From IMG/VR virus record IMGVR_UViG_3300021185_003947: 64,000 bases of DNA; one strand, 5' to 3'. Shown one piece after another: positions 1 to 35,736 of this stretch. Made by a program: the position numbers and the translations under genes. Position 1 is the first letter of the stretch. Every line of letters begins with the position of its first letter. The DNA comes from a virus. Taxonomy: Duplodnaviria > Caudoviricetes. The notes beneath the pieces were generated by a model, which saw nothing but the letters and a program-made list of their open reading frames with translations, searched no databases and was not told the DNA's origin.

Positions 1-152
1 TCGCCCATGACCATATATTTCATACCAGCTTCTTTGCTATTATGCACAGCCATAATGTCATGGTTAAGACCAACTGAAATGTGAACGTGATGCCCATCTT
101 TATTTTCATTAAGTGTGCGCAATAGCTTTGTGTATCTTTTATCCATTTTCAT
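1..152 (-). CDS. Hypothetical protein, runs off the window edge
   Basis: My translation from ATG at 152 (MKMDKRYTKLLRTLNENKDGHHVH...) is open to position 1. It overlaps the stop of the upstream ORF (ATGA). Confidence 0.6.
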   Translation of the reverse strand, partial: MKMDKRYTKLLRTLNENKDGHHVHISVGLNHDIMAVHNSKEAGMKYMVMG

Positions 153-1375
153 CTTCCTGGTTTATCCCATCCTTTTAAAATATCTGGCGAAAAGTTGTTG
201 TATGAAAATTCTAATCTGTCAACAATCTTTACCGCATCACCACCTAATTTGTCTATAGCAACATATCCTTCTTCGCCAGTGACCTTAAATCCATTAGGTG
301 TCTTAACGAAAGTATCAATGCTCTTTAGCTTATTAAGTATATTTATAAGTTTTAATTTTACAACAATTATTAACTTCTGAAGATCAAAAATCTTTTTAAG
401 ATTCTCTTTATTTTTTTGTGAAAAGAATTTTAAAAATTCATCACGTTTTATCATCTGGGCATTTTTACCTTTTTCAGTTTTACGCTTATCAATTTCTTTT
501 TGATAGCGGGCAGTGACCCATTTAATTAATGCATTTACATGCTTTGCTGTATCTTTAATTTGCTCACCTTTGCGAACAAATGTGTTATTAAATGTCTCAA
601 TTGTTTGAGCTAAATCTCTATTATTTTCAAGAGTTTTTAATGTAGATGCACCAATTTGATTAAACAAAAAGCCTATTTCAGATAATTTTTTATTTACATC
701 TTCTGTTTCTTTAGCTGACATAGTAACTCTTGTTAAATCTCTTAGCATAGCATCTTGTGACCATACATCTGCACTTTTTCTTAGTTTTGAAACATCTACT
801 CCATATGATGCTTTCATTGTTTCAAAAGAATTGCCAGTATATGTAGTATGCCATACAATACCCATTTTAGCTCTTTTTACTGCAGTTGCTGCAACAGTTC
901 CAGCTGGTATAGCATATGCAATAGTGTTTGGATGAAATACTACGTACTTCTGTCCACCAATTGATTGAGTAGTAAGTTCTGATTTTGAATATAAAAAGTC
1001 TCCTTGGATCACACCTTTAATTCCAAGGGCAGGCAGATACTTTAAAGCTTCTTTTAATTTAGTATTTAGATCGCCTTTAGTATCAGCATCAATATCAGCA
1101 TCGGTTTTATAAACCATAGGATTTTTATTAAAAATGCCTTTTTTAGCTACAAAAAACTTTCCATCATTTGGATCAATGCCAGCAAAAACGGCAGGAGCTC
1201 CATCCCACTTAACGCTTACTCTACCTTCTTTTTTACCGCCTAGCATATCCCTTAAATCTCTTAAAGCGAATATTGCCTGTCGAGTTCCATTCACACCACC
1301 ATAAAGAACACGATCCTCAATATGAGTCATGTGAGTGTTCTTTTGTTCTGTTAAATAATTTCCAAATCTAAGCAT
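149..1375 (-). CDS. Conserved T4-like phage protein (DUF6267-like) with RNA-ligase/nucleotidyltransferase motifs; putative internal head protein
   Basis: KWDG (motif I), QGD, EEGYV (motif IV) and VKIVDR (motif V). N-terminus MLRFGNYLTE resembles a capsid-targeting sequence. Confidence 0.6.
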   Translation of the reverse strand: MLRFGNYLTEQKNTHMTHIEDRVLYGGVNGTRQAIFALRDLRDMLGGKKEGRVSVKWDGAPAVFAGIDPNDGKFFVAKKGIFNKNPMVYKTDADIDADTKGDLNTKLKEALKYLPALGIKGVIQGDFLYSKSELTTQSIGGQKYVVFHPNTIAYAIPAGTVAATAVKRAKMGIVWHTTYTGNSFETMKASYGVDVSKLRKSADVWSQDAMLRDLTRVTMSAKETEDVNKKLSEIGFLFNQIGASTLKTLENNRDLAQTIETFNNTFVRKGEQIKDTAKHVNALIKWVTARYQKEIDKRKTEKGKNAQMIKRDEFLKFFSQKNKENLKKIFDLQKLIIVVKLKLINILNKLKSIDTFVKTPNGFKVTGEEGYVAIDKLGGDAVKIVDRLEFSYNNFSPDILKGWDKPGR

Positions 1376-1384
1376 AATAGTTTC

Positions 1385-1954
1385 CTAAACATTTTTCGGA
1401 ATGTATTCCTTAATTTTCTTTTCAATAGCCGAAATAATCTTGTTATGTGTTTGGCTTAAATAGCGATCTTTTCGTAATCTTTTAATAGCCAATACAGTTT
1501 GAGCTGCATATTTCTTTTGAAAGTCTGCTGGTCGAGTATCAATGTCTTGAACGTTTGCTAGTCTATCTGCTAACTTTACAACCAATGCCCAACTTGACAT
1601 TTTAGCCATCTTATTAGCAATGTATTCGCCTTTACCAATCGCATCAGATGCAGCTTTATCAGTTGTTAATTCCTGAACCATATCAGCAACAAGAGCACCA
1701 AACTGTTTAACTAAATCCTGATATGTAGTATCTGTATCTTCAAGTGTATCATGAAGATACGCTGCTTGAATCATAGCTGATAAGTTATTAGACTTTTTAA
1801 ATTGTTTTACGAATCGAGCAACTTCTTTTGGATGAGCAATATATTCTCCACCACTTTTTCTAAACTGACCTTTATGAGCTTTTGTTGCAACACGAAGAGC
1901 GGTCAAAGCACTTTCATTAAGAGGTTCATTCATATGTGATTTAAAATTAAGCAT
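1385..1954 (-). CDS. RelA/SpoT-type HD-domain (p)ppGpp hydrolase (small alarmone hydrolase/Mesh1-like)
   Basis: AHKGQFRKSGGEYIAHP, AAYLHDTLED and KLADRLAN motifs; no synthetase domain. Confidence 0.88.
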   Translation of the reverse strand: MLNFKSHMNEPLNESALTALRVATKAHKGQFRKSGGEYIAHPKEVARFVKQFKKSNNLSAMIQAAYLHDTLEDTDTTYQDLVKQFGALVADMVQELTTDKAASDAIGKGEYIANKMAKMSSWALVVKLADRLANVQDIDTRPADFQKKYAAQTVLAIKRLRKDRYLSQTHNKIISAIEKKIKEYIPKNV

Positions 1955-1963
1955 TGTATTTTC

Positions 1964-2806
1964 CTATATTACTTTACCGCCGCCGGCCGGAGCTTTAGCC
2001 AATCTAAAACTAGCCATAGCGTCTATTGATGCGTGTTTTTTCGGACTATTTAGTCCTCGAGGCTGAATACGAACTTCAAGCTTTGCTGATAAATTTTTTA
2101 AAGAATCTAATTTTGTTAATCCATGCTGTGCAGCAATTTCACTCAGATCACTTTTTGATAAAATGCCATTAGTATCTACTAGCCATATTTTATCTTTTAA
2201 CATCATAAATAATACACTTGCTGCCGATCCGGCTTTAAGATTTTTTACAAATTTAGTTTTGTAATGATCAATAATTTTTTGGCCAAGTACATCACCTGTA
2301 ATTTGAGCAATTTGATAATTATTTGTTTGATTAGCAAATTCTTGAGCTTTTGTTTTACGATTTTCTTTATCTTTTATAATAGTCATTGAACCAGAATATA
2401 ATTTTTTAACGTCTTTACTAAAGTAAGTTTTAAGATCTTTCAATAATCTTTTACCATTAGTAATAGCTTCAGGGGTATTATTCATTATATCAATTAGCTC
2501 TTTCTTAGATTCACTCTTTAAATCTGGCGTTGAAAACTTTCTGCCGTTAAAATGCCAGTCTCTCATTGATCCCATTTGCGCTTTATAATCAGCTTTATAT
2601 TCATAGTGTAAATCAATAGTCTTTCCATTTTTTAATTTAACTCTATAAGCAAAGTCTGGAAAACCAGCATCAAAGCCAGCTGGAGAAACTATAGCTTTCG
2701 ATCCAACTAATTTATTTCCAAGATCAGCAAAAGCCTTATTTTCTGCAGCTTGCGCTTTAGCGCTTACTCCTTTTGCTTCAGTTATATAACTCTTAAATGT
2801 AAGCAT
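1964..2806 (-). CDS. Putative PD-(D/E)xK nuclease-fold protein, putative internal head protein
   Basis: FPD...EYK signature; N-terminus MLTFKSYITE. Confidence 0.45.
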   Translation of the reverse strand: MLTFKSYITEAKGVSAKAQAAENKAFADLGNKLVGSKAIVSPAGFDAGFPDFAYRVKLKNGKTIDLHYEYKADYKAQMGSMRDWHFNGRKFSTPDLKSESKKELIDIMNNTPEAITNGKRLLKDLKTYFSKDVKKLYSGSMTIIKDKENRKTKAQEFANQTNNYQIAQITGDVLGQKIIDHYKTKFVKNLKAGSAASVLFMMLKDKIWLVDTNGILSKSDLSEIAAQHGLTKLDSLKNLSAKLEVRIQPRGLNSPKKHASIDAMASFRLAKAPAGGGKVI

Positions 2807-2836
2807 AAACTTTTCCTATAGTAGTTTAGTTTATAC

Positions 2837-2844
2837 TATTTATA
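2837..2844 (-). promoter_or_regulatory. T4-type late (gp55) promoter TATAAATA
   Basis: Exact TATAAATA about 30 nt upstream of the ATG at 2806. Confidence 0.8.
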
Positions 2845-28158: not shown

Positions 28159-28977
28159 TTATTTGTTAAATGAGATATTTTGTTCAAGCTCCCTTTTATC
28201 TTTTGTATATTCAGATCTAATTTTATTATTTGATTTAATTACTTCATCTAATAAAGAAAACGATATTGCATAATCTAAAAACGCTGAAGTGTCTTTTGGA
28301 AAACAAGCTCCACCAAAACCCATTTTGCCATCAAATCCTGGAACACTCGTATGAGAGTTACCAATCCTTGGATCTGATCTCATTGCATAAGTAATCTCAT
28401 CAAAATTACAATCATGTTTTTGTATTATATCATAGAATTGATTGAACCATAATACCTTTGTAGCAAGAAAACAATTAATTCCATATTTAATAAAACTTGC
28501 TTCTTTTAATGTCACATGGTGGCATGGGCAAGGTTTACATTTACTATATTTTTTATATATTTTCTCAATATTATTTGTATCTTTAATATGCCCTCCAAAT
28601 ATATGCATTGGTGGATTAATAAAATCTTTATCTGCAGATTTTTCATTTAAAAATTCAGGATTATAAACTACTCTATCACCAGAAAGTTTATCTATAATGT
28701 CAGGTGTAACTGTTGATTTTATTACAATATGTCCAGCTCTATTAAGCTTTAACCATTTGACAGTTTCAATTACTAGTTCAGCATTAATTGATCCGTCATT
28801 ATTCATAGGTGTTGGTAAACATATAAAAAAGATATCATCAAATGGATTAGTATCTTCTACTGTAGTATTATATTTAATATCGATTGGTGTAATATCACAC
28901 AGTTTTTTATTAAAACCATTAATAATAGCTTTGCCTACAAATCCACATCCAATAACAGATATTTTTAATTTTAGCAT
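28159..28977 (-). CDS. ugd: UDP-glucose/GDP-mannose dehydrogenase family (short form)
   Basis: IGCGFVG, CLPTP, KST, NPEFL and GFGGACFPKD. Confidence 0.88.
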   Translation of the reverse strand: MLKLKISVIGCGFVGKAIINGFNKKLCDITPIDIKYNTTVEDTNPFDDIFFICLPTPMNNDGSINAELVIETVKWLKLNRAGHIVIKSTVTPDIIDKLSGDRVVYNPEFLNEKSADKDFINPPMHIFGGHIKDTNNIEKIYKKYSKCKPCPCHHVTLKEASFIKYGINCFLATKVLWFNQFYDIIQKHDCNFDEITYAMRSDPRIGNSHTSVPGFDGKMGFGGACFPKDTSAFLDYAISFSLLDEVIKSNNKIRSEYTKDKRELEQNISFNK

Positions 28978-30176
28978 ATAAATTCCTCTAATGTGTTACT
29001 CACCTTATCATAATTTATAGTTTGTTTTTTATTACATTGAATAGCAAATTTTGCATCAATCATTTGGTTATCAAGTCTGCCGTGTACAAAAGATTGAACT
29101 TGTTCAGCCATATCCTGTGCAGTAGTCACAGGAACATTTTGACAAATCATATTAAGATTTTTTATTCCACCTTGTAACATAAAATCACCTGGAAGTTTCA
29201 TAATAGAAAGACATTCTCGAATAGTCAAATAACGATCTTCATCTGGATGAGTAAGTGATCCTGGCATATGACCTACAAACGCTCCAATATAATCTTTAGG
29301 TATTTCAGTAGTCTTACGCATAATATTACCGCCACTTTTTAGCTTATGATACATACGATTACATTTACCAGCTTCGTTTTCAAATCCTTTTTCTTTCATC
29401 CACTCACCTACTTGATCATATTTAATTCCAGATTTTTCAATTTCATCAAGTGGATTAGTACTCTTTATAATTATATCTTGAAATTTAGAATGACAAATGC
29501 CATTATTAAGTTCTTCAAGTACATATTTATAAAACGGATTTTTACTTGGTATATTTTTATTAACAATTATATTCATAGGATCATCTTCATGTAGATCTAC
29601 ATTACGAATAGTATCTTCAATTTTTTCATGTTTGCGTTCAATATAACTTAACATTGGTATCTTATCACCTTGCCAGAAAAAATAAAAAGTACGATCACGT
29701 ACTTGGCTTAGTCCATGAAGTATAGATTTTGTTTTATAGATACTAAATGTATATCCATTTTGACTAGCAATTCGTTTTAACTGTTCAACAACAGGTTCGC
29801 CCATTTTGCTAGCCAGTCTTGGAGCATTTTCACCCCAAAATACTTTAGGTTTTAGTGTGCCTAAAACATGCCGAGCAGTACTTAACATCCAATCATTATT
29901 AGCATTAGTCGACGATGCAGATGGGCTAAGACTTGATAATCCAGCACATGGGCAAACAGTATTAATAACATCAACACTTGGTATGTTATAAGGAGTATCA
30001 CCATCTAAATGATGATAGGGTACTTTGTTTTTATAGTATTCAACTAACTGTCTATCATTAGCTTCAAACGCAGAATAGCTTAAAATATATTCAGGTTTTG
30101 TACCAAAAACATTTTCTTGGGCGATTGTTTCACCACCAATAAGTGGCACAATAGATGCGTGTTTATATGTCATCAA
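28971..30176 (-). CDS. C5-cytosine methyltransferase-like protein with atypical motif I
   Basis: PCAG (IV), ENAP (VI), QVRDR (VIII), RYLTIRE (IX) and QNVP (X); FxGxG replaced by PLIGG. Confidence 0.7.
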   Translation of the reverse strand: MMTYKHASIVPLIGGETIAQENVFGTKPEYILSYSAFEANDRQLVEYYKNKVPYHHLDGDTPYNIPSVDVINTVCPCAGLSSLSPSASSTNANNDWMLSTARHVLGTLKPKVFWGENAPRLASKMGEPVVEQLKRIASQNGYTFSIYKTKSILHGLSQVRDRTFYFFWQGDKIPMLSYIERKHEKIEDTIRNVDLHEDDPMNIIVNKNIPSKNPFYKYVLEELNNGICHSKFQDIIIKSTNPLDEIEKSGIKYDQVGEWMKEKGFENEAGKCNRMYHKLKSGGNIMRKTTEIPKDYIGAFVGHMPGSLTHPDEDRYLTIRECLSIMKLPGDFMLQGGIKNLNMICQNVPVTTAQDMAEQVQSFVHGRLDNQMIDAKFAIQCNKKQTINYDKVSNTLEEFIC

Positions 30177-31201
30177 AAAAAGTCCTCTAGTGTATTACTA
30201 ATTTCTTCACCAGTCCAATGTGGATAATATTGTCTTGATAAATGTATTGATTGAGGCTTTTCCATATAATCAAAATCTAACTCTCCTTCTCTATTTGTGA
30301 GTTTATTGACCCATCGAATTATTTTAGCTCTTTTAGCTTTTGTTTCTAAAATTTCTCTAAATTTTAATCTGGCCTCATTGCGCTGTTCCCAAGTACCCCA
30401 GAAGGGTTGGTCTTTATAATAACCAGACTTTGGTAATTTGCGACTAGTATGCTCAATAGGCAAAAGTTCATATATAGAAACATTTTCAATAGGTAATGCC
30501 TCAACTGCAGTTATATATCTTTCTGCTAAGTTAATAGTATTTTCTAAAAAATCTCCATCAAGCCGACAAACGTGATGGCGAATGTCAATATTACCAAAAT
30601 AACATTCAAGCTCTTTGATATTTTCAAAATCACTTATATATGTTTGAAGACCATCATTTAATGCGCCATTTAGTGTTTTAAATGGTACACTATTTACGGT
30701 CCAGCTTGGACGATACATACAAATAGAATGACTATCACCAATTACAAGCTTATTAGTTATTAAAGGATACTTAATAGTTTGAGCAGTTTCATACATTCTT
30801 TTAAGATTATCAATATCAACTTCAAGCCATTCAGATTGAATATCATTACCCTTTGCTTTTGCTTTATCAATTCTTTCTTGAATCATTTCATGATAAGGTG
30901 GAAAGTCAATTGCTAATGAATATACTTTACCTTTGAATTTTGAAAAGTTACGAGTGTTAGCAGCATAGGGAAATCCCTTTACACCACCAAACACATTCAT
31001 TGATCCAGACCAATCATTGCCATGATAAACATACATTTCGTCGTAGTCATTATGATCTTCAATTTTACCAGAATAGTTGATAGTAATATCAACTCCGGTT
31101 TGTTTGATCATATCAGCATAGATTGCACCTTGAGCACCTCTATGAGATGCCATACGAGTAGCAACTGGAATAAATGGAGCATTTAATATAGCTTTTATCA
31201 T
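30173..31201 (-). CDS. Putative DNA-modifying protein: beta-glucosyltransferase-like N-domain fused to an SGNH-like domain
   Basis: N-half KAILN / NDYDEMYV / MNVFGG / KFKGKVYSL resembles T4 BGT as I recall it. C-half has IGDSH, GNID and SIHLS. Confidence 0.45.
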   Translation of the reverse strand: MIKAILNAPFIPVATRMASHRGAQGAIYADMIKQTGVDITINYSGKIEDHNDYDEMYVYHGNDWSGSMNVFGGVKGFPYAANTRNFSKFKGKVYSLAIDFPPYHEMIQERIDKAKAKGNDIQSEWLEVDIDNLKRMYETAQTIKYPLITNKLVIGDSHSICMYRPSWTVNSVPFKTLNGALNDGLQTYISDFENIKELECYFGNIDIRHHVCRLDGDFLENTINLAERYITAVEALPIENVSIYELLPIEHTSRKLPKSGYYKDQPFWGTWEQRNEARLKFREILETKAKRAKIIRWVNKLTNREGELDFDYMEKPQSIHLSRQYYPHWTGEEISNTLEDFF

Positions 31202-31207
31202 TATAGT

Positions 31208-31236
31208 AATATATCACACTTTCTTATAAATGTAAA
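31208..31236 (-). promoter_or_regulatory. sigma70-type early promoter
   Basis: TTTACA-N17-TATATT. Confidence 0.6.
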
Positions 31237-31239
31237 GGT

Positions 31240-32337
31240 CTAAACCATAAAAGATTCTAATGGTGATGGTTCAAGTTTTTTCTTTAAATTTTCAGCAATA
31301 TCAACAAACGAATCAAACGTTAATGGTAACATTCTTTTAGTTTGAGCCTTTGAATTATCTTTGATTCCAAGAAAACAATTAAATTGACAAAAAGTAATTT
31401 CAGTACCAAAGGTTGTGAGATTACCATTTCGTTCAAGATTTTCTTTATAGAACATTGCAGAAGTGTTATCCATTTCAAAAAACTCATGTTGATGATCTCT
31501 AACTGCTATTATATATGCTTCCATAATTTCATTATTTTTAAATTTAACTTCTGGAAATACATACTCAAGACCACGTTTAGCACCAGGGCCAACTAAACAA
31601 TAATTATCATCCTCATCAATATTAGGTAAATCATTACATCTAGAAAAATTGCAGGGTGGGTGATATGAAAAATATGGTCCAATACCACGATGAGTAGAGA
31701 ACCAATCACAAACATCACCTAGTTTATTATTTTTATCTTGTACAACCTTACTCATACCAAGATCATCTAAATGAGCCATCCATCTAATCATGTGAGATAA
31801 AGCAAACTTTTCGTTTGGATCTTCATCTTCTTCTCTACAAAAATTACGAGCAGATGTTTGAAGACTAGTTTGAAGTTGAGTTGCACCCCAAACTTTCATT
31901 TTGTTTTTATTAGTATTTAGATTGTTATTAATCCAATGATAATAATCTTTTTTTAGTTTATATTCATCAAAATCAATAATTTTACTATAGTCAGTAGAGT
32001 CTGAAGCAACCAAAGTAAGTGTTGGCATACCTACAAACTTTACTGCCATAGCATTGAGAATTTTATTTCTCATTGAAGTATCTTGGTTAAATACAAAATT
32101 CTCTAACCAATATACCTCGGCATGTTTAGAACGATTTGGGTTCCAATATGAAACTTCTTGTCTCATTGCAGGGCCAAAATCTTCAGAGTATTCGTATTCG
32201 TTAATTTGACCCCTTTCTCTTAAAGTTTCTCTTTTAAAAAAATCAAGAACCCACTTATTAAAATAATTAAAATTATTTGGATCACGGGTCTGTTTTAACG
32301 TTTTAAGCGAAATCATGCCGCACATTTTCCTTTTCAA
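31240..32337 (-). CDS. aGPT-Pplase / amino-acid:DNA transferase-like protein (HhH-glycosylase fold)
   Basis: RGIGPYFSY...D...VGPGAKRGL..VFP...EITFCQF pattern. True start may be internal. Confidence 0.6.
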   Translation of the reverse strand: MKRKMCGMISLKTLKQTRDPNNFNYFNKWVLDFFKRETLRERGQINEYEYSEDFGPAMRQEVSYWNPNRSKHAEVYWLENFVFNQDTSMRNKILNAMAVKFVGMPTLTLVASDSTDYSKIIDFDEYKLKKDYYHWINNNLNTNKNKMKVWGATQLQTSLQTSARNFCREEDEDPNEKFALSHMIRWMAHLDDLGMSKVVQDKNNKLGDVCDWFSTHRGIGPYFSYHPPCNFSRCNDLPNIDEDDNYCLVGPGAKRGLEYVFPEVKFKNNEIMEAYIIAVRDHQHEFFEMDNTSAMFYKENLERNGNLTTFGTEITFCQFNCFLGIKDNSKAQTKRMLPLTFDSFVDIAENLKKKLEPSPLESFMV

Positions 32338-32737
32338 CTAAATCGTGTTGTAGCAATACCACATTAATGTGGGGCATCATTTTTCTAATGATTTCTGCTT
32401 GAATTGGATCATCTTCATAATGTATTCCAAATCTATATCCAAGTGTTTCAAGATGAAAAAGTGTCCGGCCTTTATGGCGGCCGGAGTCTTCTCTTGATTT
32501 TGATTCAAATGGTGTTGGATTTAAATACAATTCATTGGTTATATTTTTAGATTTAAGCATTGCTTCAGTTTCAGATCTTTCTTCATTAGATCGACCTGTA
32601 ATGATAACATCTCTATCACCTGGATAAACACCATCATATTTATCCATAAAAATAACACCATCAATATCAAAAGAATTAATTATTTTATCTGGAACAGCAT
32701 TTTGCTCTACATAATTATTCATAATCAGTTTTTCCAT
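32303..32737 (-). CDS. HAD-superfamily phosphatase
   Basis: FDIDGV, ITGRS, K and YEDD; directly downstream of the MIPS gene. Confidence 0.8.
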   Translation of the reverse strand: MEKLIMNNYVEQNAVPDKIINSFDIDGVIFMDKYDGVYPGDRDVIITGRSNEERSETEAMLKSKNITNELYLNPTPFESKSREDSGRHKGRTLFHLETLGYRFGIHYEDDPIQAEIIRKMMPHINVVLLQHDLVEKENVRHDFA

Positions 32738-34010
32738 CTTGGTATGTATATGGCAAATCTTTAGCTTTAGGATTAGATTTAGCTAATTGTGGCCGAGTCA
32801 TATTAGTAAGCTCTCGACGAGCAAGGGCATCACATTCAAACTTTGCATCAGATGTTGTAAGCTGAACAGGTGGAGTTTTTTGTGTATAAGCACTTGGCCC
32901 ACGAAGAATGCCAACAATTCCCATTTCAGCAGCTACTCGACAGAAACGAATTGCTGATATAACAACACCACCTGAGTTTGGTGAGTCTTGACATGATAGT
33001 CTAGCTTGAAGAGTATAACGAGCTCCACCAAATCCAAATGCTACAATATCAAGATCTGCAATCTTATTATCAGATCCAACATAATCACCACCTGGTTTTT
33101 GCATAACAGTTAGAGATGGGCCGGCATATAGTGTATCACCGGCATAGTCAACACCACGGACAGTATTCTGTCCTTTTAAAACATTTTCTTTTGAGATATG
33201 TTTATTATGTAAACGCTCTTTTTCAGCCATATTAATAAAGTCAGTGTTTGATGTAACACCATTACGAATATGTTCACGGCCTTGGGTTGCTCCACCAATT
33301 CGATTGGTTTGAGTATGATATGTAACATGTAAACCACCATCAATCATTGCACCCTGCAATACCTCAGATAAACGAGATGCTCCCCAAGCTGAACGCATAT
33401 CAGATCCAACAAAAGTAAGACCTGCATTAATAAATTTTTGTTCGATTTCTTGAGTTTCTTTTGTTTCAATCAATGTTGGAATACAATTAACAAAATGTAC
33501 TTCAGCAGCAAGAGCAACGTCTAAATAAAAGCGAGTAGCTTTTTCAGATCCAACTGGCAGATAATTAATAAGAACTTCGACACCAGATGATTTGATAAGA
33601 CTAACAATATCATCAAATGACTTAGCTGATTCAGCACCAACTCTAAATGATACTTCTTCAGGGTAATATTCCATCCATTCTGCAACACCATCAAGTGTTG
33701 GGCTTGAATACACTTGAGCGCCTTTGGCTACAGCTCCAGGTGAATTGTTTCCAGATTCTAATATTTCTTGAACATGATTCATTGCGCAATTTGGTTTTGC
33801 TCGTAAAGCTTCAATAAGAGGACGATTAACTTTACGACGGTCTACGTCAAAGCCAATTACAAATTCAACAGAGCTTGTATCGTATCCACCAATATCTGGA
33901 TACATAAGACCTACAGTATCATTTGGATTTTCATTATAATATTGCATGCCTTCAACAAGCGACTGTGCGCAGTTTCCTACACCAATAATACCAACTTTAA
34001 TTTTCTTCAT
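32715..34010 (-). CDS. ino1: myo-inositol-1-phosphate synthase homologue (Ino1 type)
   Basis: IGVGNCAQSLVEG, FDVDRRKV, YLPVGSE, VNCIP, TDFINM, ISK and DSPNS. Confidence 0.88.
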   Translation of the reverse strand: MKKIKVGIIGVGNCAQSLVEGMQYYNENPNDTVGLMYPDIGGYDTSSVEFVIGFDVDRRKVNRPLIEALRAKPNCAMNHVQEILESGNNSPGAVAKGAQVYSSPTLDGVAEWMEYYPEEVSFRVGAESAKSFDDIVSLIKSSGVEVLINYLPVGSEKATRFYLDVALAAEVHFVNCIPTLIETKETQEIEQKFINAGLTFVGSDMRSAWGASRLSEVLQGAMIDGGLHVTYHTQTNRIGGATQGREHIRNGVTSNTDFINMAEKERLHNKHISKENVLKGQNTVRGVDYAGDTLYAGPSLTVMQKPGGDYVGSDNKIADLDIVAFGFGGARYTLQARLSCQDSPNSGGVVISAIRFCRVAAEMGIVGILRGPSAYTQKTPPVQLTTSDAKFECDALARRELTNMTRPQLAKSNPKAKDLPYTYQDGKTDYE

Positions 34011-34137
34011 TTTTACTTCCTTTATTTCAGTTTTTTAAAGTGAGATTGGCTGCATAAGCAGAGTAGCTCACGTTATAGTTATAATAGTTTTAGTGATTAT
34101 ATTATATTACATTTTTAATAAAATGTAAACTAAAAGT

Positions 34138-34671
34138 TTACAAATTAACCCATCTATATTTAAGACCAGCTTCTTTGTAATATGACTTAGATCTTTGCCA
34201 TGAGTCATGCCATTTTTCATCAATCTTTTGCCGTGGCATGACTAGTTCAGCAACTCCTACTTGAATAAGTCCTTTTGCGCAATCAGAACAAGTAGGAAGA
34301 CCTGATACGTAAACAGTTGATTTATTTAAACACACACCATTAAAAGATGCATTATAAATCATGTTCATTTCAGCATGAACAATTCTAACATATTTCTCTT
34401 TTCGATTACTATATAGGTTAGGACTATCAAGCATTCCTCGAGGAAATCCATTATATCCTTGAGCTAAGACTTGCCCTTTTGAACCTACAGCAATGGCTCC
34501 AATTTGGCTTGAAGGATCTTTAGACCATCCAGCAATAGTTTTAGCTAGCTCTAAATATCTTAGATCCCACTTATGTTGTCGGGCAAGAAAAGCTTTATCA
34601 TTTTTTTTATGAGCATTCTCTCTATCTTTCATATCATTATAATTATTTGACAAGATTAAAATGCCTTTCAT
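34138..34671 (-). CDS. cd: dCMP deaminase
   Basis: SKDPSSQIGA, GYNGFPRG, HAEMN and PTCSDC. Confidence 0.93.
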   Translation of the reverse strand: MKGILILSNNYNDMKDRENAHKKNDKAFLARQHKWDLRYLELAKTIAGWSKDPSSQIGAIAVGSKGQVLAQGYNGFPRGMLDSPNLYSNRKEKYVRIVHAEMNMIYNASFNGVCLNKSTVYVSGLPTCSDCAKGLIQVGVAELVMPRQKIDEKWHDSWQRSKSYYKEAGLKYRWVNL

Positions 34672-35332
34672 ATACGTGAAGATTTTGTACCTGCCAGATC
34701 ATCATACCAGCGCTAACTGGATCTTTAACTATACAGATATTATTTAAATCATCTACTAATTTATTTTGTACATGTCGTTGCCAAGCATAATCGTTCTTAT
34801 AACCAAACACCACATCATTAGACCGCATTTGGACTACACAATGAAGTAAATTATCACGAATATAGTAAGTGACAGCGTTAGTACAAATGAAATCAGATTT
34901 TCCATTTTCGTTAAACTCCACCCAAATAGAAGGCCGATTGTAGATCATAGAAGCACGTCTACCATCGGGATTTTTGTCTAGTTCAGCCAATACGTTTTGA
35001 TATTGATCATAGTATTTATTCGAATAAATTAGATGACCATAGTTTGAATTAATTTCACCATGTGTATTAGCAGCATATTTCCAAGCAGCTGGAGCATCTT
35101 CGCCAGACTCTTTATTAATATCAAAGATATTAGTTGATTGGCTATCATACCAATCCAATTCTTTTTGAATATATGAAAGAGACGGTTTACCAAATATAGA
35201 TGGCTCATCAGCAATAAATGATGCACCAATCATTTCAATAGTGCGTGCGCCAGTTTTATCAATAGTAAATGCTTCATCATTTAATTCATCAATAAAGAAT
35301 TGACGAACATCTTTTACAGAATTCATTTTCAT
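34643..35332 (-). CDS. 42: dCMP hydroxymethyltransferase (T4 gp42-like)
   Basis: DKTGARTIEMIGASFIADEP, GEINSNYG, DFICT and MRSNDVVFGYKNDYAWQ, with the cytosine-specifying Asp as in T4 gp42. Confidence 0.88.
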   Translation of the reverse strand: MKMNSVKDVRQFFIDELNDEAFTIDKTGARTIEMIGASFIADEPSIFGKPSLSYIQKELDWYDSQSTNIFDINKESGEDAPAAWKYAANTHGEINSNYGHLIYSNKYYDQYQNVLAELDKNPDGRRASMIYNRPSIWVEFNENGKSDFICTNAVTYYIRDNLLHCVVQMRSNDVVFGYKNDYAWQRHVQNKLVDDLNNICIVKDPVSAGMMIWQVQNLHVYERHFNLVK

Positions 35333-35736
35333 TGCTCACATACTCTCTTTCTTAGATCGCTTGTTGAAAAGCGATGATCACGTTTATTAAAATAAAGATC
35401 TATACCACGTTGTCGACATTCATCTTTACCAGTAAAATCTTTACTCCTATATTCTTCACCAAGTATCCTAACATCAATTGGATACATGTTTATTATATCA
35501 CATAAATCGCTTTCTGTACAATAAATAATCACTTCATCTACATATTTTATTGCATTGAGCTGTACCTGTCTTTCCACAATATTTTGAATTGGAGCATTCT
35601 TTTCTTTACGATCGATGGTAGGATCTACTTGCAGACCGCAGATCAAATAGTCACACTGTGACTTTGCTTCTCTGAGCATAGATACATGTCCAGCATGAAG
35701 TAAATCAAAAGTACTACAAGTAAATCCCACTTTCAT
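35329..35736 (-). CDS. Cytidylyltransferase (TagD/HIGH family)
   Basis: TFDLLHAGH, GLQVDPT and RDHRFSTS. Confidence 0.88.
   Translation of the reverse strand: MKVGFTCSTFDLLHAGHVSMLREAKSQCDYLICGLQVDPTIDRKEKNAPIQNIVERQVQLNAIKYVDEVIIYCTESDLCDIINMYPIDVRILGEEYRSKDFTGKDECRQRGIDLYFNKRDHRFSTSDLRKRVCEQ

Follow-up and report, generated by a model that had tools for sequence, protein, structure and literature searches.

Bacteriophage T4 fills its head with internal proteins that carry a short N-terminal capsid targeting sequence (CTS). The first 10 residues of the internal protein IPIII are enough for head targeting (Mullaney and Black 1996, reviewed in PMC9026906), and T4 genetics assign targeting to residues 4 and 7 and processing to residues 8 and 10 (PMC9026906). 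Fusions of the CTS to GFP, staphylococcal nuclease, EcoRI and beta-galactosidase have been engineered (Mullaney and Black 1996, reviewed in PMC9026906), and in such fusions the 10 residues suffice to load and deliver enzymes, including nucleases (PMC9026906). In this study, we focused on three consecutive genes at the beginning of a 64-kb stretch of viral DNA (IMG/VR record IMGVR_UViG_3300021185_003947; the whole stretch of 64,000 nucleotides is called the window hereafter), whose products begin MLTFKSYITE, MLNFKSHMNE and MLRFGNYLTE. In sequence terms, these 10-residue N-termini are a T4-type CTS. They are followed by a predicted nuclease-fold protein, a predicted small alarmone hydrolase (the HD protein) and a predicted RNA-ligase-like protein of the family DUF6267, and it is probable that all three enzymes are head cargo loaded by means of this leader. 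A preliminary description of this DNA had reported the three open reading frames (ORFs), their N-termini and the T4-type late promoter box TATAAATA at 2837-2844 on the minus strand, and all of these are present as claimed. The locus contains the following features.

2870-2857, minus strand: terminator-like hairpin with a T-run, immediately preceding the late promoter and ending the unit upstream of it
2844-2837, minus strand: T4-type late promoter box TATAAATA, 31 nucleotides 5' of the first ATG
2806-1964, minus strand: gene of the 280-residue nuclease-fold protein; leader MLTFKSYITE at nucleotides 2806-2777
1954-1385, minus strand: gene of the 189-residue small alarmone hydrolase (HD protein); leader MLNFKSHMNE at nucleotides 1954-1925
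1375-149, minus strand: gene of the 408-residue DUF6267 protein; leader MLRFGNYLTE at nucleotides 1375-1346
152-3, minus strand: next gene of the same late unit, start only, overlapping the DUF6267 stop codon; its product has 535-537 residues on full contigs and no leader

The phage, which is marine, T4-like and uncultured, belongs to the Kyanoviridae-like branch, distant from T4. Among deposited phages, those closest to it are Kyanoviridae or their allies, namely C48C1, Stenotrophomonas phage DLP6, Methylophilales phage Melnitz, pelagiphage HTVC008M and many cyanophages; a near-identity DNA search of the phage collection with the window gave no match. The leader resembles the CTS of T4 IPII/IPIII and IPI in that it runs from Met1 over 10 residues with an aromatic residue at positions 4 and 7, I/L at position 8 and E at position 10. 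The four positions defined as functional in T4 (4, 7, 8 and 10) are the positions conserved in the marine leaders. As in T4, the leader is fused to unrelated proteins and is predicted to be expressed late.

The specificity of the leader was assessed with a 10-position matrix derived from 42 distinct leaders of metagenomic DUF6267 homologues, which were picked via an anchor in the DUF6267 domain and not via the motif; no T4 sequence was used in training. When the 1177 candidate starts of the window were scored (background mean -24.8, standard deviation 8.0), the 280-residue protein (23.1), the DUF6267 protein (21.3) and the HD protein (11.4) took the top three places, and the next-best start scored 1.7. 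A loose regular expression applied at true ORF starts matched only these three genes in the 64 kb. When the marine matrix was applied to 1580 ATG-initiated ORFs of T4 (background mean -24.5), the best authentic starts were those of gene 61.1 (MKTFKEFIKE, 15.7), ipII and ipIII (both MKTYQEFIAE, 1.2) and ipI (MKTFKEFTST, 0.8). A search of the T4 DNA with a degenerate form of the motif likewise matched 61.1, ipII and ipIII. The equation of the leader with the T4 capsid-targeting N-terminus is borne out by this recovery of the internal protein genes and by the agreement at the functional positions. The preliminary description had given MKTYQEFIAE as the leader of the T4 internal proteins, which is correct for IPII and IPIII and incorrect for IPI. 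Gene 61.1 of T4 (NC_000866 18966-19130), which outranked the internal proteins with the marine matrix, encodes the uncharacterised 54-residue gp61.1.

The end of the leader also resembles a processing site. Major capsid proteins of Kyanoviridae have [IL]-L-T-E/A (the slash marks the cleavage point) where T4 gp23 has F-L-T-E/A, and in the capsid genes of S-SZBM1 (L014:4003-5361) and S-CREM2 (L012:482-1852) this site is aligned with the gp23 maturation site. Judged by this alignment, the protease specificity implied by the leaders looks conserved. A gp21-type protease and a gp22-type scaffold are both encoded in relatives. Candidate cleavage sites are ITE/A in the 280-residue protein, LTE/Q in the DUF6267 protein and MNE10/P or LNE14/S in the HD protein, the last being uncertain because Pro follows E10. 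A leader this short, probably an amphipathic helix, might instead resemble the T4 CTS by coincidence and direct sorting or stability in another way, for example as a degron or a membrane or chaperone tag. This reading is very unlikely: the leader agrees with the T4 CTS at each of the four positions defined by genetics, and it ends in [IL]-x-E, like the maturation site of the capsid protein itself. The resemblance to internal proteins is limited to the leader, as the mature parts show no likeness to T4 IPI, IPII or IPIII and consist of an HD_4 domain, DUF6267 and a nuclease fold instead. The idea that the leader is an internal repeat of the scaffold was considered and rejected: a single weak match was found inside T4 gp22, and likewise one inside the core protein of S-SZBM1.

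The leader is a detachable module in all three families, with its boundary at the domain start. M1, F4, [FYH]7, [ILV]8 and E10 are kept in homologues of the three unrelated families, while the positions between them vary. Information content across the families is highest at positions 1, 4, 7, 8 and 10; it amounts to 3.1-4.2 bits at position 4 and 1.9-2.6 bits at position 7, where the three window genes have F4 throughout and Y7, H7 and Y7. The 280-residue family occurs in two forms, one with M-x-x-F-K-x-[FY]-[IL]-x-E and a short linker and the other starting directly at a GVSAKAQAAE block. HD homologues are found with and without the leader, and those from isolated phages align only from residue 17-19. 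About one third of the 150 best DUF6267 representatives (at 50% identity) carry the leader immediately before the domain start at KN-H--H-ED, and many of the others begin exactly at that block. In the AlphaFold2 models of the 280- and 408-residue proteins, which are otherwise confident, residues 1-10 have a predicted local distance difference test (pLDDT) score below 50. Leaderless homologues starting at the domain are thus present in all three families, as expected of a detachable leader. On two contigs (L005:10874 and L007:6663) the HD gene was called from Met8 (MNEPLNE...), with loss of the leader; such miscalled starts indicate that automatic annotation can hide leaders.

It could be argued that what the three genes have in common acts as DNA or RNA and not as a protein signal, namely as a 5' cassette, composed of a ribosome-binding site and AT-rich first codons, that enhances translation or provides a recombination site for the exchange of genes. 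TAGGAAA and ATGCTTAnATTT are common to all three genes, the leader residues use AT-rich codons, and the slot upstream of DUF6267 is occupied by different genes in C48C1, Melnitz and DLP6. However, it is the amino acids that are conserved, at positions 4, 7, 8 and 10 only, while their codons vary. Other well-expressed genes of the window do not have the leader, and the motif is tracked by the virion proteomes described below. For these reasons, we consider the cassette explanation very unlikely.

Virion proteomes of related cyanophages, obtained by mass spectrometry, provide evidence that tagged enzymes are present in virions. The virion proteome of S-CREM2 lists 52 of its 221 ORFs (PMC10665884). 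A pattern search of the whole S-CREM2 record gave three matches at annotated starts, ORF6 (SAM hydrolase), ORF136 and ORF154 (cytidylyltransferase; the leader of gp154 is MKNFSSFLTE), and all three are in the virion proteome (chance of three out of three, ~1.2%). The S-CREM2 virion proteins gp14 (APH-like kinase, VKRFDAFLTE) and gp13 (MKDLHSFLTE) are also tagged, whereas their undetected neighbours are without the leader. In S-SM1, the virion-detected SSM1_190 ('cytidyltransferase' T4-GC190) starts MKKFSAFLNE, and the cytidylyltransferase S-SZBM1_140, whose leader is one residue shorter, was detected in virions as well. Conversely, the untagged DUF6267 homologues of S-SM1, S-SZBM1 and S-CREM2 are absent from the virion proteomes of those phages. 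These phages share with ours the lineage, the block of DUF6267 and cytidylyltransferase genes and the leader on virion proteins; they differ in that DUF6267 is untagged and undetected there and tagged here. Tagged enzymes of related cyanophages were thus detected in purified virions, and the three window proteins are probably packaged too. The virion reports on S-CREM2, S-SM1 and S-SZBM1 list the enzymes and name no targeting signal, and a literature search, with subscription journals outside its scope, found no paper tying the CTS to virion enzymes of cyanophages or marine T4-like phages.

Two further observations concern these proteomes. S-CREM2 gp12 (L013:7704-10313), a virion protein annotated as Cas9-like, has the leader-like sequence LRFASFMAE at residues 17-25, which could reflect either a wrongly annotated start codon or an internal tag. 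T4-GC15, a virion protein in Sullivan 2010, was considered as a DUF6267 homologue and rejected, because T4-GC15 is a baseplate-region gene and DUF6267 corresponds to T4-GC71, which carries no proteomic mark.

Late transcription of the tagged genes is predicted from the position of TATAAATA upstream of the first ATG and behind a terminator. On the minus strand the hairpin is followed by TATAAATA and then by the 280-, 189- and 408-residue genes, which are tightly spaced and each preceded by a TAGGAAA ribosome-binding site. The window is AT-rich (G+C content of 34%), and the word TATAAATA occurs in it at chance level (13 observed versus 12.9 expected); eight of the 13 copies sit 20-70 nucleotides upstream of gene starts. 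The same terminator and TATAAATA arrangement is found upstream of S-CREM2 gp154. TATAAATA also lies 5' of tagged genes in S-CREM2, Melnitz and C48C1, and in S-CREM2 it stands upstream of gp154, gp6 and the gp15-gp12 operon. The placement of leader genes behind a T4-type late promoter box is thus common to this locus and its relatives.

The 280-residue protein is predicted to have a PD-(D/E)xK nuclease fold resembling that of type II restriction endonucleases, and may act as a nuclease. It has 287 metagenomic homologues; no homologue was found in 50,697 phage records and no sequence match in Pfam, PHROG or the PDB. P50, D51, D65, E69 and K71 are invariant in the family. In the AlphaFold2 model (pLDDT 92.9; 49 for residues 1-10), P50-D51 precedes strand 52-57, and the adjacent strand 63-71 contains E69-x-K71. 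With VIA-align, the model matches R.HhaI with Z 9.4 and a root-mean-square deviation of 3.5 over 167 residues, followed by Hjc Holliday-junction resolvases and other restriction enzymes. In a Foldseek search of the PDB, the best matches were HinP1I, MspI and HhaI, none of them at E <= 0.001. The R.HhaI-like fold and the invariant PD and ExK residues on adjacent strands point to a PD-(D/E)xK protein, in agreement with the nuclease fold assigned in the preliminary description. The type II restriction endonucleases R.HhaI, HinP1I and MspI share the fold and have no reported capsid leader.

The 189-residue protein is, by sequence, a RelA/SpoT-type small alarmone hydrolase with ppGpp or ppApp as the predicted substrate. 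It matches HD_4 (PF13328) at 3.5e-16 with 59.8 bits, against a Pfam cut-off of 27.2. In the PDB its matches are MESH1 (5e-16), Rel/SpoT hydrolase domains, small alarmone hydrolases and one ppApp hydrolase. The block LHDTLEDTDTT aligns with MESH1 and the HD/ED block is intact, so that the earlier assignment as an alarmone hydrolase is sustained together with the HD_4 match above threshold. Phage small alarmone hydrolases of the same family have no reported capsid leader and align from residue 17-19 only. Restriction of phages by the stringent response is reported in a 2026 paper.

The 408-residue protein is modelled as a covalent nucleotidyltransferase with an RNA-ligase-like fold and a large helical insert, with self-adenylylation and strand joining as possible activities. 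It matches PF19782 at 5e-102, in a family with 2519 representative matches. K56-x-D58-G59, G125-D126, E369-G370 and K383 are invariant among 96 diverse homologues with 33-61% identity to the query, and the motifs follow the order I (KxDG), III, IV (EG) and V (K) of covalent nucleotidyltransferases. The AlphaFold2 model (pLDDT 94.5) has the insert at about residues 221-348. Its top seven structure matches in VIA-align are all RNA ligases, namely NgrRnl, TbREL1, Trl1 (two entries), T4 Rnl2 (two entries) and T4 Rnl1, with moderate Z scores of 7.3-8.2 over 176-205 aligned residues. Foldseek against the PDB gave weak matches and nothing at E <= 0.001, and a PDB sequence search with the protein gave no match. 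The invariant KxDG, the adenylyltransferase-domain fold and the identity of the seven best structures back the RNA-ligase-like assignment of the preliminary description. T4 Rnl1 and Rnl2 have the same fold and no reported capsid leader; unlike the solved ligases, DUF6267 has a helical insert of ~130 residues and no sequence match to any of them. In two DUF6267 representatives (P0427 and P0479), a HIGH-motif nucleotidyltransferase (FGR-NPPT-GH) is fused at the N-terminus of DUF6267. These natural fusions give a Rosetta-stone hint of a functional link between DUF6267 and the tagged cytidylyltransferase-like neighbour described below.

From these data we infer a sequence of packaging, cleavage, injection and counter-defence for the three enzymes. 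They would be made late from one TATAAATA promoter and would bind to the prohead's scaffolding core through leader residues 4 and 7. A gp21-type prohead protease would clip most of the three after [ILM]-x-E. The enzymes would stay in the DNA-filled head, enter the next host with the DNA and work before any phage gene is transcribed. On arrival, (p)ppGpp or (p)ppApp would be degraded by the hydrolase, which could cancel a stringent-response block. The DUF6267 protein, probably together with the tagged HIGH-motif nucleotidyltransferase encoded just past the window, might act in the repair or modification of nucleic acid (RNA) or of a cofactor. DNA of the host or of competitors, if unmodified, would be the target of the restriction-like nuclease, whereas the modified DNA of the phage would be left intact.

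Base-modification-type genes are present in the window. The region 28971-35736 on the minus strand encodes a thymidylate-synthase-family enzyme, a dCMP deaminase and a small cytidylyltransferase, as well as myo-inositol-1-phosphate-synthase-like, HMUDK-like and C5-methylase-like proteins, which suggests a pathway of DNA base hypermodification.

It is also conceivable that the leader loads the prohead and that the enzymes act there, as core components or by processing, sealing or trimming the packaged DNA, and are not injected. Adjacent nuclease-fold and ligase-fold proteins could work on packaged DNA, and gp21 of T4 clips core proteins too (PMC9026906). However, it is hard to see what an alarmone hydrolase would act on inside a capsid, and the tagged cargo of relatives (SAM hydrolase, kinase and cytidylyltransferase) acts on small cellular molecules. 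T4 CTS cargo also reaches the host (PMC9026906), and action confined to the head is unlikely.

Several points weigh against delivery of the three enzymes as head cargo. The virion evidence comes from relatives, and from tagged enzymes other than nuclease, HD or DUF6267 proteins. S-SZBM1_191 (MKSFKSFLSE) and _192 (MKTFKQYITE), two small proteins with perfect leaders encoded next to the virion proteins _190 and _195 (OL473597 122311-123125), are not among the 30 proteins of the shallow S-SZBM1 virion proteome. The authors of the S-CREM2 study cautioned that abundant late proteins could co-purify with virions in caesium chloride. In the HD protein, position 8 is occupied by Met and E10 is followed by Pro, and many HD homologues have no E10. 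No head genes are found among the genes of the window, the protease and scaffold genes lying outside the 64 kb. As untagged homologues exist, each of the three enzymes can evidently be useful without being packaged. Lastly, a nuclease stored beside the genome would need to be restrained from it, and such protection is inferred solely from the base-modification genes of the window.

The transcription unit is longer than the three genes. The preliminary description had it end at position 149, but on contigs with the same genes it runs ~8 kb further and contains at least four more tagged genes. The part beyond window position 1 was read from contigs encoding identical proteins (L006:9277-17196). 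It contains the genes of the following proteins.

From position 152 to beyond the window: 535-residue protein, no leader (the gene whose start is listed above)
Beyond the window: 564-residue cytidylyltransferase-like protein, leader MINSFKQYIVE, with a HIGH-type motif
Beyond the window: 600-residue DUF5824 protein, no leader
Beyond the window, after the DUF5824 gene: two paralogues, no leader
Beyond the window: 239-residue protein, leader MKPFRKFITE
Beyond the window: 146-residue protein, leader MKTFRELLEN
Beyond the window: 95-residue DUF6321 protein, leader MDTFKQYISE

The next TATAAATA appears only past the end of this extension, behind the 95-residue DUF6321 protein. Within the window, a T4-like replication module (DNA polymerase, gp41-type helicase and gp46) and tail-fibre genes are encoded. 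Unlike those of T4, the tagged genes here form one long late operon adjoining replication genes. The block with tagged genes is also present in C48C1 (four strict matches, all inside the block), Melnitz and DLP6. In DLP6 (AAY80_066) and Melnitz, DUF6267 itself bears the tag. The slot 5' of DUF6267 encodes 433 residues in C48C1 (L001:4700-6001), a 361-residue protein tagged MQGFKTFLSE in Melnitz (L003:3923-5008) and 305 residues in DLP6 (L002:4079-4996), and these genes are unrelated among the phages. It looks like a variable cargo slot, filled here with the nuclease-like and HD genes, and is reminiscent of the variable internal protein loci of T-even phages.

The CTS mechanism of T4 is known. 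What appears to be new is its presence in the marine Kyanoviridae-like branch, its full-size enzyme cargo and the explanation that it offers for published virion enzymes. Natural T4 cargo consists of small basic proteins, whereas the candidates here are enzymes of 21-46 kDa with intact catalytic motifs, and the type of fusion that was artificial in T4 appears to be natural in this phage. A broader proposal, which we put forward tentatively and with some doubt, is that the CTS is an ancient label that Straboviridae and marine Kyanoviridae-like phages have in common and that can be read from sequence. As part of that equally tentative proposal, the label would load here a multi-enzyme first-strike kit, active ahead of all phage transcription and made up of a restriction-like nuclease, an alarmone hydrolase and an RNA-ligase-like enzyme with an NMNAT-like transferase.

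Several cyanophage papers cannot tell whether virion enzymes are cargo or contaminants, and a conserved leader supplies both a mechanism and a sequence test. The results also provide working hypotheses for two large families with no assigned function, DUF6267 and the 280-residue nuclease-like family. If head loading by the leader is true, the natural cargo of the CTS would extend from small inhibitor proteins to full enzymes, including an alarmone hydrolase able to switch off the stringent response on arrival. The injected proteins of very abundant marine phages would then be predictable from genomes and metagenomes.

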